Shown: piece by piece, positions 5,414 to 24,810 of the stretch
Layout of the letters: each line of letters starts with the position of its first letter
Position numbering within the stretch: position 1 is the first letter of the stretch
IMG/VR virus record: IMGVR_UViG_2897375277_000004
DNA: 30,827 nucleotides
Source: a virus
Lineage: Duplodnaviria; Heunggongvirae; Uroviricota; Caudoviricetes
Strand: one strand, 5' to 3'
Notes under the pieces: model-generated
Databases searched by the model: none
Told to the model about the DNA's origin: nothing
The model's input: the letters and a program-made list of their open reading frames with translations, nothing else
Made by a program: the position numbers and the translations under genes

Positions 5414-6604
5414 TTAATTGCTGTTAACCGAGGTGACCAGACCTGCCAGGTATCTTGAAGTAATACGCTGGCGCAGGGTCAGGTTTTCGAGAGGAGGCAC
5501 CGGGGTATAGTCGTAGTCGATATACAGTTTTCCGGCCTTGAGGGTTTCCGCATCGTTGGATTCTTCACTGAACCAGCATGTGCCATCCACGATATAACCG
5601 TTGTTTTTCAGCTCGCGGAATTTGGCATTGATGCCATCAATGATGTCGCGAATCAGCGTTGCGGTGATGGGCTTATCAATAGCCCACATGTGCGCCTCAG
5701 CCATCGTGTCGGCCAGTACCTGCGCGGTGCGGGTGTAGCTTTCAAAGAGGAATAGTGGGTCATCGGAGCAGGTACGGTTACCCCAGAAACGGAAACCGTC
5801 GCGGCGAACCAGCGTTGTGACGCCTGCCTCGTTCAGCAGGTCAGCATCAGTACCAGACTTCTGCAAATCCCAGAATACAGATGCACTGATGCCGGTAACA
5901 CCGTTTACCCCGACGTTGGACAGCGTTTTATGCCAGCCCTGCTCCTGGTCGATTTTAGCGCGCAGACCCAGCGCACGGGCGGTGGCATACGCGGTGGCGG
6001 TGGCACTGGTGACCGTATCCCATGCGAGGAAATCCGGCCAGATGACCATCAGCTCACGCTGGCTGAAATTCTGACGGTAGGCTTTTGCCTCGGAAATGGT
6101 TTTACAGCCCCATGCGCTGATATACCCGAATGCATTCAGTTCCTGGCATACCGATGCCAGTGCGACGGCGACCTCTTTGGTGTCCAGTCCCGGCACGCCG
6201 AGAATACGCGGTTTAACGCCGGTAACCGACTCAGCGCCCATCAGGGCTTTCAGTCCGGTGTACTGACCGTTTTCGTCGGTGGTGCCGATGATATTGGAAA
6301 CGGTCTGCGCGAGTTTCGTTTCCTCGTCGTCGCCGGTGCCGTCTTCCACACGCACGACAACGGTGACCGGTTTTGACTGGTCGGCGATGGCCTGCAACGA
6401 TGCCGCCAGCGTGCCTTTTTTACCGGCCTTTGCAATTGCGCTCTGCACATTGGTAATCAGCACAGGTTTATTGAGGGGGAAGGTTTCCGCATCCGCATCG
6501 CTGGCCGTGCAGACCATGCCGACAATGGCAGTGGATACGGTGGAAATGACGCGGGTGCCGTCGTTAATCTCCAGCACCTGCACGCCGTGATGATAGTCAC
6601 TCAT
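5414..6604 (-). CDS. FI: Contractile tail sheath protein FI
   Basis: 396-aa ORF; P2 gpFI length; first gene of the FI-FII-E-T-U-D operon. Confidence 0.92.
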   Translation of the reverse strand: MSDYHHGVQVLEINDGTRVISTVSTAIVGMVCTASDADAETFPLNKPVLITNVQSAIAKAGKKGTLAASLQAIADQSKPVTVVVRVEDGTGDDEETKLAQTVSNIIGTTDENGQYTGLKALMGAESVTGVKPRILGVPGLDTKEVAVALASVCQELNAFGYISAWGCKTISEAKAYRQNFSQRELMVIWPDFLAWDTVTSATATAYATARALGLRAKIDQEQGWHKTLSNVGVNGVTGISASVFWDLQKSGTDADLLNEAGVTTLVRRDGFRFWGNRTCSDDPLFLFESYTRTAQVLADTMAEAHMWAIDKPITATLIRDIIDGINAKFRELKNNGYIVDGTCWFSEESNDAETLKAGKLYIDYDYTPVPPLENLTLRQRITSRYLAGLVTSVNSN

Positions 6605-6903
6605 CCGTTTAACTCCGTGGTTAATGGGTGCAACTATTTTCTGTTGTGCAGAGCATGAGACGCTATTTGACCTGACTGGTCAGTGGATGAAACAACAGAT
6701 AAAGAAAAGGCGGACAATTCGCCCGCTATCCTGATTTGTACTCACTCATTTTCCAACTGACAGTTTACATAGCCCAAACGCTATCAAATCTGACAGCCTG
6801 CTTTGAGCGAACAGCAGACATTCATTAATATGTTTGTTAGGCTAACTTTATATGATGATTACTGAAATTGACCTTAGTTTGAGAATTGCATTAGGGGAAT
6901 AAA

Positions 6904-8010
6904 ATGGATGTCAATGAACTTAGAGAGTTACTTATCAAGTATAATGGCCTTCAAAATACTGATGAAGTCTATACGTTTTATTATGATGAAACGAATAACA
7001 TTCGAAAACTATATTTAAAAGATTCTGGCTTTAATGTTGTAAAGGCGGATAACTTCATCCTTGCAGGAATACTACACAAAGGGTTAAGCACTGACAGCGA
7101 TTATTCAACCCTGTTTCAAAAGCTTAATCTTCAAAAAAGTGTCAATGAGTTAAAACTCAGATATATCGCTAAGGGTAGTTTTTTGGATATGCTTAAATCC
7201 GATAAGCTTTTAATTATTCTAAACTGGCTTATCGAAAACAATTTCTACATCCATTATTTTAATCTTAATATCACATACTGGTCTATTATTGACATTGTTG
7301 ATTCTATTATTGGAGAGCTACATAATCCTTTTTATATCATGAACCACATGTCACTTAAGAGCGATTTTTATGAGCTTGCCAATAGCAATCCCGATGTTTT
7401 CCTGAATGCTCTACATAAATTTAACTACCCCGATATTCCAGAAGAAAAAGTTTATGAGTTTTGCCTCTGGCTTATCGATTTTACATGCATGCACAGTTGT
7501 ATGCTGCCAGATTTTCGAGCACACGCACTCGAAAATTTGGTTAAAGAATCTCTAAAAATCGAAGAACTACCGTTCATATCGGGATTTCATGGTCGAAAAC
7601 TGATCGATAGCTTTATGGTATTTTATTTAAGAAACTTGTATCTATTTAAAAATTCCGTTCACATATTTGATGAAGAAAAAAGCATTCAAGATGAAGTTAA
7701 AAACTTCCCGTTAACTGAAAATGGCATACCAATACAGAATCATGAATTCGTTAAATCCCACAACTCAGAGGCTATCCAACTATCTGATGTTATCGCAGGC
7801 TTTTTGGGTAAGTATTTTTCTTACTTAAAAGATGTAAATGACGAGCAATTAGCGATTGATAAGTCAGCCTTAACGAGCAAGCAATTTAAGACCCTTTCTG
7901 CGTTAAAACACATTATTGATGTTTCTGATGATGTTAGCAGAGGATTTTTTAATGAAGTTAGCAGCGAGGGAGAGCGACGGAGAAATAATCGTTTTTTACA
8001 TGGCGTATAA
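6904..8010 (+). CDS. Hypothetical cargo protein (368 aa) at the Z/fun variable locus; function unknown, candidate defence/exclusion gene
   Basis: Long ORF in visibly AT-rich DNA, opposite strand to all flanking late genes, good SD (AGGGG, 7 nt before ATG); motifs YYDET (aa 26-30) and IQLSDVIAG (aa 291-299). Confidence 0.7.
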   Translation: MDVNELRELLIKYNGLQNTDEVYTFYYDETNNIRKLYLKDSGFNVVKADNFILAGILHKGLSTDSDYSTLFQKLNLQKSVNELKLRYIAKGSFLDMLKSDKLLIILNWLIENNFYIHYFNLNITYWSIIDIVDSIIGELHNPFYIMNHMSLKSDFYELANSNPDVFLNALHKFNYPDIPEEKVYEFCLWLIDFTCMHSCMLPDFRAHALENLVKESLKIEELPFISGFHGRKLIDSFMVFYLRNLYLFKNSVHIFDEEKSIQDEVKNFPLTENGIPIQNHEFVKSHNSEAIQLSDVIAGFLGKYFSYLKDVNDEQLAIDKSALTSKQFKTLSALKHIIDVSDDVSRGFFNEVSSEGERRRNNRFLHGV

Positions 8011-8109
8011 TCGTAAGGGGTAAATTCTGCTTTTGGCACAGGGCGAACTGTCAGATTGGTTTTCACTCTGTGCCATAGATGTATAAACTCACATCAGAGC
8101 TTATACAAT

Positions 8110-8688
8110 TTATTGCGGCATTTCAGGCCATTCTATATTCGGAGCATCTTCCGGCTGAACTCGGTTAAGTAATACCCGGTATTTTTTCCATTTTGTCAGA
8201 CTTGATTTTTCTTCTTCGGTAGCCATATCTAAATCGACTGCATCCTGCAAAGTGGCAATAATTTCGCCTGCATATGCGGTCTGCTCTTTCTTCTGAAACT
8301 CAGCCTCCCTGACAAGCGCATCACGCTCTGCGCTCTCATCGTCCACCCACGCATTCCCGTTCCATTTCTGATAGTTGCCGGTCGGGGAAATTGTTGTTAC
8401 ATCAGATGGTAATGAGCCAAGTTCAGAAATATAAATGGCTGCTCCTGTTTTTGTTTCATAGACAGTCTTTCCGCGATGGTCTTCCACCAGCTCCCATTTC
8501 ATTTCATCTGCATTGAAAACGGCGGCAAAACCCACCGGAATATCTGGAGGTGCAATGTCTGTACTGTTTGCAGGAAGACCTGTATGCGGCGGAATATATG
8601 CGTCACTTTCGCCAATAAATTCATTGGTTCCATCAAGTAAATTGAAAACGCGGATGGTTTGTGCCTCTGCACTCATTCTGAAAGTCAT
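8110..8688 (-). CDS. G: Tail fibre assembly chaperone
   Basis: 192-aa ORF immediately downstream of tail fibre gene H, sharing a stop/start overlap; P2 gpG position but longer than P2 gpG (175 aa as recalled). Confidence 0.85.
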
Positions 8689-22602: not shown

Positions 22603-24810
22603 ATGGAACTTAGTCTAAAAAATGTAACAAGCTACGACAAAAATAAATATACGAAAATATCCCTCGAAAAAAGAATAAATATCCTTTACGGGCAAAACGG
22701 AGCTGGGAAATCTACCATATCAAATTTTTTCTATAATCCAGCAGACGATGACTATAGGGACTGCCGCTGCACAAACATTAATAACTATCGTCCATTGGTT
22801 TATAATACAAAGTTCATTGAAGACAACTTCTTTGATAAAGATGTTCAAAAAGGGATTTTTACATTAAGCAAAGAAAATACCGAGATCGAAAAAGAGATAA
22901 GTAAGAAAAGAGAAATAGTTAAAACATTAAAAATAAAACTAGAGGCAACAAAAACAAATTATCAAAAAATTAAAGACCGCAATCATGATGCAGAAACAAG
23001 TTGTACTGAATCAATATGGTTAAATACCGAATACATAAGAAACTCTGATGTCAACTCATTAATGGCAGGGTACCTTAAGAATAAAAGAAACCTTTTCACA
23101 AAGGTAAAGTCTTCTATTAGATTATCTGATATAGATTTAAATCAATTATTAACTGACTACAGAGAGTTATTGAATCATAAAAACACCACCATACAAACAA
23201 TATCTCCATATAATCCTTATCCTATTTCTTTTGATGATGAAAATTTATTAAAGACTCCTGTCATTGATTCTAGCAATAGCTATCTATCAGAAACAATCAA
23301 AAAGCTTCAGAATCTCGATTGGGTTAAAAAAGGTAAAGAAAATTATTTAGTTGGCGACATTTGCCCTTTTTGTCAAAAAGAAACCATTGATGATAAATTC
23401 ACAGAGGCGCTCGAGCAAATTTTTGATGAAAGCTACGCTCAGAAAATAACATCAATTGAAAAATTAAAATATATTTATGAATTAACTACTCAAGAACAAC
23501 TTCAATTACTAAAAACACAGTTAAATGACTGTACAGCAATCTCAATTGAAGAAAGAAAAACTAGTCTTGCTCACATTTCTTCCCTTGAGAAAATGCTAAA
23601 AAGTAACATTGAGTTAATTAATAACAAGATACAAAACCCGTCACTCAGCGTAACTCTTGATAAAGATAAAGATATTGAGGAATCTCTTCTAAAAGACATA
23701 AAACAATATAACTCTAGAATTAATGACCTTAATGAAAAGGTAAAACAATTTAACCTTACTCAAGATAAAATAAAAAATCAGTTTTGGGGAGCATTGAGAA
23801 ACTACTGCAATACAGACTTTGAAGTTTTAGAGAAAATTCAAGCCGAAAACGACATCATTATCAAGAGTCTCGAAGAAAGCATTGATTCTATTAACAAAGA
23901 AATCAAACACACTGATGATGAAATAAAGGAATTAAGAAATAAAACATCCAATATCGACGCAACAATCTCCTCGATAAACTCAAAATTAAAAAACCTTGGC
24001 ATTACCTGTTTCTACATTGATAAACATCCAACCATAAAAAATAGTTTCGTTATAGTTCGCTCAGATAATACACCAAGTAAAAATGTATATAGATCTCTTA
24101 GCGAAGGTGAAAAAACTCTCATTACATTTCTCTATTTTATTGAATATTGTAAGGGACAAACAAACACAGATGAATTCGACAACCGAGACAGTTTAATCGT
24201 CATTGACGATCCTATTTCAAGTCTCTCTCAGAACTATATCTATGATATAGCATCGATGATTCACTATGACATTTTCACTTCTGCTAATAAAGTGATAATC
24301 CTCACTCATAATCTATATTTTTTTCATGAGCTAATAAAGTTAGCTCCAATTTCAGAAAGGAAATTCAATAGCACCTATCAGCTTTTTAGAATAACAAAAA
24401 ACCTACATAGTTCTTTTTCTAACATCAGCAGAGATAGTTTGCAAAATGAATATCAATCTTTATGGCAAATACTCAAGGATGCCAGAGATGGAAAAGTTCA
24501 CAATGTAGTTATCCCTAATACAATGAGAAACATCTTAGAATATTACTTTGCATTTGTTCATAAAACTAACGAGTTACAAGAAGAATTGAACAAGCTTGCA
24601 CAAAATGAAAGCAATAGTAATTTTAAGGCTTTCTATAGATATATAAATAGAGGTTCACACTCAGATTCGATAAACATAACAGATATGGGTGAAATAACAC
24701 CCGACATATACATCACACAATTTAAAGAGATATTTAGACTTATGGGAGATATTTCACATTTTAATAAAATGTATGAAGAGAAAAAGAATATAGAAGACAC
24801 TACCGCTTAG
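22603..24810 (+). CDS. Cargo protein (735 aa): Rad50/SMC-like ABC ATPase with coiled coil, CxxC hook and C-terminal extra domain; candidate defence effector
   Basis: Walker A GQNGAGKST (aa 30-38), long Lys/Glu-rich predicted coiled coil, CPFC (aa 254-257), signature-like LSEGEK (aa 499-504), Walker B LIVIDD (aa 531-536), H-loop LTHN (aa 567-570), ~165-aa C-terminal region; very AT-rich. Confidence 0.85.
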   Translation: MELSLKNVTSYDKNKYTKISLEKRINILYGQNGAGKSTISNFFYNPADDDYRDCRCTNINNYRPLVYNTKFIEDNFFDKDVQKGIFTLSKENTEIEKEISKKREIVKTLKIKLEATKTNYQKIKDRNHDAETSCTESIWLNTEYIRNSDVNSLMAGYLKNKRNLFTKVKSSIRLSDIDLNQLLTDYRELLNHKNTTIQTISPYNPYPISFDDENLLKTPVIDSSNSYLSETIKKLQNLDWVKKGKENYLVGDICPFCQKETIDDKFTEALEQIFDESYAQKITSIEKLKYIYELTTQEQLQLLKTQLNDCTAISIEERKTSLAHISSLEKMLKSNIELINNKIQNPSLSVTLDKDKDIEESLLKDIKQYNSRINDLNEKVKQFNLTQDKIKNQFWGALRNYCNTDFEVLEKIQAENDIIIKSLEESIDSINKEIKHTDDEIKELRNKTSNIDATISSINSKLKNLGITCFYIDKHPTIKNSFVIVRSDNTPSKNVYRSLSEGEKTLITFLYFIEYCKGQTNTDEFDNRDSLIVIDDPISSLSQNYIYDIASMIHYDIFTSANKVIILTHNLYFFHELIKLAPISERKFNSTYQLFRITKNLHSSFSNISRDSLQNEYQSLWQILKDARDGKVHNVVIPNTMRNILEYYFAFVHKTNELQEELNKLAQNESNSNFKAFYRYINRGSHSDSINITDMGEITPDIYITQFKEIFRLMGDISHFNKMYEEKKNIEDTTA

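Follow-up and report, generated by a model that had tools for sequence, protein, structure and literature searches.

What role can be assigned to a lone gene of foreign base composition lodged among the late genes of a P2-type prophage? The question is raised by a stretch of 30,827 nt (IMG/VR record IMGVR_UViG_2897375277_000004, Caudoviricetes), the whole of which is referred to below as the window. It corresponds to a P2-type prophage, with genes for tail sheath, tube, tape-measure, baseplate and fibre proteins, terminase, portal, replication protein A and integrase. Between the tail sheath gene FI and the tail-fibre assembly gene G, where P2 carries its Z/fun cassette, the sole long open reading frame (ORF; 6904..8010, + strand) encodes a protein of 368 aa. 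An earlier examination of the sequence (hereafter the original prediction) had proposed that this gene is a cargo gene acting in phage defence. On balance, we favour the view that it forms a single-gene accessory cassette of the FI-G hotspot and encodes a stand-alone, RNase H2-like, metal-dependent nuclease, most likely involved in the defence of the lysogen against phages or other mobile elements.

A single-gene cassette in the FI-G slot

The cargo gene lies on the strand opposite to the late genes FI and G. Its GC content is 0.34 (0.33 at third codon positions), and the GC profile shows values of 0.31-0.38 over ~6750-8100 as compared with 0.55-0.60 in the backbone on either side. A Shine-Dalgarno (SD) motif, AGGGGA, occurs at 6893-6898, 5 nt ahead of the ATG. 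The ORF list, the GC profile and this motif thus bear out the initial description of a single ORF of low GC content, opposed to its flanking late genes and preceded by a strong SD. In a DNA alignment of the window, identity with P2 was found to collapse after ~6823 and to resume at ~8022, and phage fiAA91-ss aligned throughout. These borders, approximate to within a few bases, delimit an exchanged unit of ~1.2 kb composed of the gene, ~80 nt upstream and ~12 nt downstream. The main features of the locus are the following:

5414..6604, - strand: left flank, tail sheath protein FI (Pfam Phage_sheath_1, Phage_sheath_1C and Gp18_domIII_N)
6605..6822, unstranded: intergenic P2 backbone lying upstream of FI, outside the cargo, shared with ~60 P2-like phages including P2
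~6823..8022, unstranded: exchanged low-GC cassette in place of that of P2, Z/fun (DNA alignment with P2 and fiAA91-ss, GC profile)
6904..8010, + strand: cargo gene, 368-aa DUF3800 / PADLOC PDC-S51 protein with a predicted RNase H2-like core
8110..8688, - strand: right flank, tail-fibre assembly protein G (Pfam Caudo_TAP, E 1.1e-39)

Two dimensions given by the original prediction had to be revised. The island of ~1.5 kb is longer than the DNA actually exchanged, and the leader of ~300 bp is indeed non-coding but is not the gene's own, since its first 218 nt (6605-6822) are P2 backbone, with 92-94% identity in the ~60 P2-like phages, and only ~80 nt belong to the cassette. On the other side, P2-like prophages of Escherichia coli devoid of the gene match the query over no more than its final ~87 nt (about 8023-8109).

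The fun locus has been described as a second defence-enriched hotspot of P2, with three validated systems plus fun (Vassallo et al. 2022, PMC9519451), and a 2026 preprint lists defence loci inside P2 late genes. In P2 itself, the Z/fun slot is occupied by an ORF of 181 codons, found on the late-gene strand and recorded as an unnamed hypothetical protein. The present gene has no homology to P2 fun(Z): DNA identity is lost within the borders, the coding strand is the other one, and only the position is shared. The Z/fun location was correctly recognised, and the opposite orientation is not that of P2 but is typical of other cargo of the slot, as three other P2-like phages carry theirs in the orientation of 6904..8010. 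The swapping of slot content was confirmed directly by four other phages, each with a different and unrelated single gene encoding a 360-aa protein, a 251-aa protein, fun (181 codons) or a full-length PD-T7-1. The slot, its conserved borders and the single-gene, low-GC nature of the cassettes are common to P2 Z/fun, PD-T7-1 of vB_YpM_46, the other FI-G cargo and the gene described here, whose sequence is unrelated to those of both the P2 Z/fun ORF and PD-T7-1.

Several of these cargo genes are themselves annotated as hypothetical. The PD-T7-1 gene of Yersinia phage vB_YpM_46 (L104, 2099-3448; PADLOC E 1.5e-156), which is also found in VB-YPM-4, occupies the same slot in the same orientation. 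The 360-aa product of phage vB_EcoM-12474II (L101, 3519-4601) has an N-terminus resembling the restriction endonuclease (REase) domain of the PADLOC 'Aga' model (E 4e-18), and the 251-aa product of phage P22H4 (L102, 3711-4466) has no PADLOC hit. The last two can be regarded as further defence candidates.

A long-form member of the DUF3800 family

The likeness to DUF3800-type proteins suggested by the original prediction was confirmed by a match to Pfam DUF3800 (PF12686) scoring 32.2 bits against a gathering score of 21 (E 2.1e-7; profile positions 2-147 of 149). The same match is precomputed for most relatives. Since the 149-position profile is stretched over residues 25-302, a large insertion is implied. 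A match to Pfam DUF1831 was dismissed, its 16.4 bits being under the cut-off of 25. The defence-system search advised by the original prediction returned a single PADLOC hit, to the candidate family PDC-S51, which covers the full length of the protein (E 1.4e-106; residues 2-366 against profile positions 4-370 of 376). PDC families are predictions obtained by 'guilt-by-embedding' (Payne et al. 2024 preprint, 10.1101/2024.01.29.577857). As a PDC-S51 member, the protein shows this end-to-end hidden Markov model match, a single-gene organization and a position near or inside other defence loci; a slot among P2 late genes is a context outside the definition of the family, which is itself predicted.

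The protein falls in PHROGs family 15126, whose function is unassigned there, and no NCBIfam family was matched. In agreement with the stated lack of virion or lysis features, no similarity to virion proteins was found, the sole genuine BFVD match being another phage DUF3800 protein. The 1,121 representatives of the family at 50% identity are nearly all 355-395 aa long and unfused. The hotspot is published, the family is present in Pfam and listed among the PADLOC candidates, and the gene is already labelled 'DUF3800 domain-containing protein' in RefSeq; given this annotation and the PADLOC listing, its novelty as an uncharacterised gene had been overrated.

Both motifs singled out by the original prediction lie at the residues indicated, Y-Y-D-E-T (aa 26-30) within F25-Y-Y-D28-E29-T30 and IQLSDVIAG (aa 291-299) as I291-Q292-L-S-D295-V-I-A-G299, and the N-terminal D-E and C-terminal QxxD motifs of DUF3800 proteins (as in PMC7736814) are thus present. 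In an alignment of 49 sequences reaching down to 36% identity, the invariant residues of the 6904..8010 product include D28, E29, D130, H253, D256, E258, Q292 and D295; N32, K152 and S285 are also counted as invariant in this product. A loss of the acidic residues D28, E29 and D295 among homologues, which had been named beforehand as evidence against the proposal, was not seen in a wider set of 254 relatives (median identity 36%, minimum 27%): D28 and D295 are conserved in all 254 sequences, E29, D130, D256 and Q292 in 253, and H253 and E258 in 251.

A predicted RNase H2-type core

The AlphaFold2 model of the protein, of very high confidence (predicted local distance difference test, pLDDT, 94.4; predicted template modelling score, pTM, 0.92), displays a predicted RNase H2-type nuclease core with a type-2 RNase H-like fold, which is consistent with the metal-dependent nuclease envisaged at the outset. 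In this model, D28-E29 ends strand 1, D130 is located in the helix after strand 4, H253, D256 and E258 lie at or after strand 5, and Q292 and D295 belong to the following helix; together, these residues would constitute the active site. The 'DE' motif of RNase HII likewise sits at the end of strand 1.

Structural alignments with type-2 RNases H gave 7-11% identity. Foldseek found no match in the PDB at E up to 1e-3, the Pfam scan revealed no RNase H family at E up to 10, a profile search of PDB sequences returned 0 hits and no link to RNase HII, and hhalign against E. coli RNase HII gave a probability of 0.1%. Because sequence and profile searches yielded no link, the relation to RNase HII is one of fold only. 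Published work has independently assigned DUF3800 to the RNase H fold, with a rearranged catalytic site (PMC10910872; PMC7736814).

In contrast to type-2 RNases H (RNase HII, RNase HIII and eukaryotic H2A), the protein has the additional conserved residues D130, H253, D256 and E258, is longer by ~170 residues, and is encoded by a mobile-element-borne rather than a core gene. A helical insertion of ~80-100 residues and a C-terminal helical domain set it apart from RNase H2, and these parts probably provide substrate choice or regulation. With Pfam DUF3800 proteins in general, including those of retron type VII and the TPR-DUF3800 proteins, it shares the DE and QxxD motifs, the RNase H-like core and a non-canonical set of catalytic residues, and differs by the large helical insertion followed by the C-terminal helical domain. 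The retron type VII effectors lack the Q of QxxD (PMC7736814), whereas Q292 is almost universally conserved here. The gene does not belong to a retron of that type, as the cassette contains one ORF, in whose product DUF3800 was the only domain identified, with no reverse transcriptase nearby and no match to an RNA family. Nor does it correspond to the TPR-DUF3800 proteins of Cas12a2/a3 loci, with no TPR hit, no CRISPR locus and P2 tail genes as neighbours.

Distribution and genomic neighbourhoods

The species-level genomes in which the family was detected number 304 and belong to Proteobacteria and some other phyla; its members ride on prophages, integrative and conjugative elements (ICEs), plasmids (148, of which 65 conjugative) and defence islands. 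The exact protein occupies the same P2 slot in all eight contigs listed, and Escherichia albertii is the named source of an identical sequence. Of 50,697 phage records, only those of fiAA91-ss and one uncultured contig contain the gene.

In Vibrio, the homologue resides in an integrase-bounded island together with SIR2+DUF87 (SIR2-HerA), PLD and methyltransferase genes; the Alteromonas homologues are found in islands with DUF4365, GmrSD and SduA, and the Pectobacterium homologue in a relaxase/integrase island beside SduA (Shedu). The island of Pectobacterium parmentieri also contains, ~4 kb from the long-form homologue, a second and shorter DUF3800 gene (244 aa; L098, 12290-13024, - strand). 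PADLOC analysis of the 149 nearest flanking ORFs, from ~80 independent loci, identified PD-T7-1 (5), MADS (4), and AbiEii, GajA/GajB (Gabija), AriA, DRT, Ppl and IetS (2 each). When 723 neighbouring ORFs were clustered, no neighbour family was present in more than 10 of the 86 loci, indicating that the gene has no fixed partner and is stand-alone.

The ratio of nonsynonymous to synonymous substitution rates (dN/dS) is 0.20-0.22 between P2 copies and 0.14-0.22 across genera. The GC content of the gene is 0.31-0.34 whatever the host, for a host GC of ~50%. Judged from sequence comparison, selection preserves the gene, and its horizontal spread is recent.

A second candidate defence gene was observed in the other P2 cargo hotspot, between the portal gene Q and the replication gene A, which holds tin/old in P2. 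There, the window encodes a 735-aa AAA_13 ATPase (22603-24810, + strand) that is matched over its full length by the PADLOC candidate PDC-S06 (E 3.3e-250) and bears a weaker likeness to LmuB, AriA and JetC. With the PDC-S51 and PDC-S06 genes, this single prophage therefore carries two predicted defence candidates.

Upstream region, expression signals and flanking DNA

Besides the gene itself, several features were recognised within the cassette and at its edges:

6710..6726, - strand (late-gene strand): intrinsic-terminator-like hairpin with T-run in the backbone (terminator scan; conserved in P2 and fiAA91-ss)
6803..6831, + strand: sole sigma-70-like candidate, TTGAGC-N17-TAATAT, 8/12 (relaxed scan of 6700-6903; weak prediction)
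6848..6865, + strand: probable relic of a PD-T7-1-like gene, last codons and stop, TTATATGATGATTACTGA = L-Y-D-D-Y-stop (alignment with L003, 7946-7963, L010 and L011)
6866..6903, + strand: conserved 5' region travelling with the gene across genera, AAATTGACCTT...AGGGGA, including the SD at 6893-6898
8035..8074, unstranded: conserved backbone hairpin GGCACAG...CTGTGCC, just inside the right border and downstream of G (present in P2 and fiAA91-ss)

A standard promoter scan detected no + strand sigma-70 site of at least 9/12 upstream of the cargo gene, and the promoter and terminator scans together revealed neither a strong sigma-70 promoter nor a canonical terminator for it. The weak candidate promoter at 6803-6831 straddles the junction, with its -35 box in the backbone and its -10 box in the cassette. 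Its sequence does not differ in fiAA91-ss or in two E. coli prophage copies, and all four of the P2 copies inspected retain it. The backbone DNA at 6605..6822 would be expected, by analogy with the biology of P2, to contain the late promoter of the FI operon. The hairpin at 6710..6726 would stop late transcription on the minus strand once it has passed through the cassette, antisense to the cargo gene. More speculatively, because the late H-G operon converges on the cargo gene and the next terminator (6710-6726) lies beyond it, antisense late transcription may cross the gene during the prophage's own lytic growth.

Conservation with homologues of other genera is confined to ~55 nt on the 5' side and ~30 nt on the 3' side of the gene. 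The region 6866..6903 exhibits 80-87% identity to the DNA upstream of homologues in five other genera. Within and next to it, the + strand sequences ATTGAC (6873-6878) and GTCAAT (6910-6915, codons 3-4) could pair around the SD and start codon, and both are conserved in six genera; the resulting stem around the ribosome-binding site would be weak, with a consensus energy of ~-4 kcal/mol and no covariation.

The short segment immediately upstream may point to the origin of the cassette. In Vibrio, Ketobacter and Thiodiazotropha, which hold the closest non-phage relatives, the DUF3800 gene is preceded, at a distance of 33-39 nt, by the end of a PD-T7-1 homologue (E 4.9e-73). In three distant relatives (L072, L083 and L085), PD-T7-1 is found downstream instead, so that the pairing recurs in both orders. 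As TTATATGATGATTACTGA at 6848-6865 matches the end of a PD-T7-1-like gene, the cassette was probably clipped from a PD-T7-1 + DUF3800 tandem, with the loss of the original upstream DNA; the match extends over only ~17 of 20 nt and lends modest support. The PD-T7-1 cassette of the Yersinia phage was considered as the donor of this relic and rejected, its C-terminus being different.

On the right, the inverted repeat at 8035-8074 is not a canonical terminator, since it is followed by no T-run on either strand, and its Rfam match to mir-263 is spurious. This repeat may mark a recombination boundary of the cassette exchange. Within the coding sequence of gene G (8147-8300, - strand), a partial, sub-threshold match to Rfam IS009 was observed (42 bits against a gathering score of 117; E 6.8e-8), raising the possibility that this 'sRNA' family derives from remnants of prophage tail-fibre-assembly genes.

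Defence and alternative explanations

A role in defence is supported by the PDC-S51 match, the defence-island and mobile contexts of the homologues and the published fun hotspot (PMC9519451), all of which lend weight to the original proposal. The gene, expressed in the lysogen, would protect it from other phages or mobile elements by cutting the nucleic acid of the invader, or by cleaving RNA in an abortive infection. Several points weigh against this interpretation. The promoter is weak or uncertain, and expression in the lysogen is something that we can only infer. The cassette is also rare, being present in 6 of 5,426 complete E. coli genomes; the adjacent P2 backbone occurs in ~1,960 copies in 1,692 E. 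coli genomes, and the cargo gene fills the slot in only ~0.3% of E. coli P2-like prophages. Finally, no experiment on the PDC-S51 family was found in the literature searched, where the name PDC-S51 does not appear. The same holds for DUF3800 biochemistry, and the DUF3800 literature, in the part available to us, reports no test of a stand-alone gene.

Four other explanations were considered, each of them less well supported in our ranking than a defence nuclease. The protein could target elements other than lytic phages or serve the prophage itself, for example by keeping out plasmids or P4-type satellites, through counter-defence or as an addiction-like module. Its RNase H-like chemistry would be unchanged, with intermediates such as R-loops or primers as possible substrates. 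Relatives of the protein are often carried by conjugative elements, with relaxases and the ArdC anti-restriction protein as neighbours, as well as by the conjugative plasmids counted above, and an RNase H-type fold would suit RNA-DNA replication intermediates. Yet classic anti-phage systems account for many of the neighbours, anti-phage genes are documented in the P2 slot, and no antitoxin-like partner gene accompanies the ORF; we thus hold this scenario to be unlikely. An RNase H2-like core would fit a housekeeping-type RNase H involved in replication or repair, such as primer or ribonucleotide removal, and purifying selection, being silent on function, would be compatible with this or with a non-defence accessory gene ('moron') contributing to host fitness outside conflicts between elements. 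We find these roles rather improbable for a gene that P2 does not need, as shown by its absence from more than 99% of P2-like prophages, that has no detectable sequence relation to true RNase HII, and that combines a patchy, mobile-element-borne distribution and a foreign GC content with defence genes as neighbours.

The last two explanations concern a missing partner. The gene might be the orphaned half of a two-gene PD-T7-1 + DUF3800 system, inactive or mis-expressed when alone, as the adjacency of the two genes in the closest non-phage relatives and, in the reverse order, in three distant ones could suggest; the relic at 6848-6865 also implies that a native promoter may have been lost. However, the pairing concerns only 7 of the 86 loci, and PD-T7-1 is functional without a second gene (PMC9519451) and is also found on its own in this P2 slot. 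The lone DUF3800 gene, for its part, is intact and keeps all putative catalytic residues, is under purifying selection between P2 copies (dN/dS ~0.2), and is conserved in at least 8 independent contigs, all of which makes an inactive half-system very unlikely. A non-coding RNA partner, as in an RNA-guided or RNA-regulated nuclease, is brought to mind by the eleven RNA motifs associated with DUF3800 genes (PMC5737381) and by the links of DUF3800 domains with retrons and Cas12a2/a3 loci. Against such a partner, a search of 6400-8300 with Rfam 15, at E up to 10, gave no DUF3800-I to XI, drum or skipping-rope motif, although which of these Rfam 15 holds was not checked; the whole window had 0 Rfam matches at the gathering score, and when both 300-nt flanks of the gene from 86 loci were compared all against all, no non-coding block proved common beyond close relatives. 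The conserved flanks are short, the 5' stretch has no covarying structure, and the cassette offers little room besides the ORF, so that dependence on an RNA appears very improbable. The preferred reading therefore remains that of a stand-alone nuclease, most likely protecting the lysogen.

Implications for the DUF3800 family

DUF3800 proteins are widespread and recur in conflict systems, including retron type VII, Cas12a2/a3 loci and the loci of eleven orphan RNA motifs. The compact, single-gene and partner-free member described here, carried by an Escherichia prophage, would represent an unusually easy entry point into this family. An absence of protection would weaken the 'guilt-by-embedding' predictions made for PDC-S51, whereas protection would validate that family, add a system to the P2 FI-G hotspot and provide the first functional anchor for DUF3800. 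It is also conceivable, if doubtful at this stage, that the long (~370-aa) DUF3800 subfamily represents a new class of stand-alone immune nuclease, in which a core derived from RNase H2, equipped with additional catalytic residues and a helical sensor domain, would recognise a nucleic-acid structure found only in invaders, such as RNA-DNA hybrids, replication primers or R-loops. If true, this would give the DUF3800 superfamily its first biochemical function, and offer a handle on its recurrence with retrons, Cas12a2/a3 and the eleven orphan RNA motifs.

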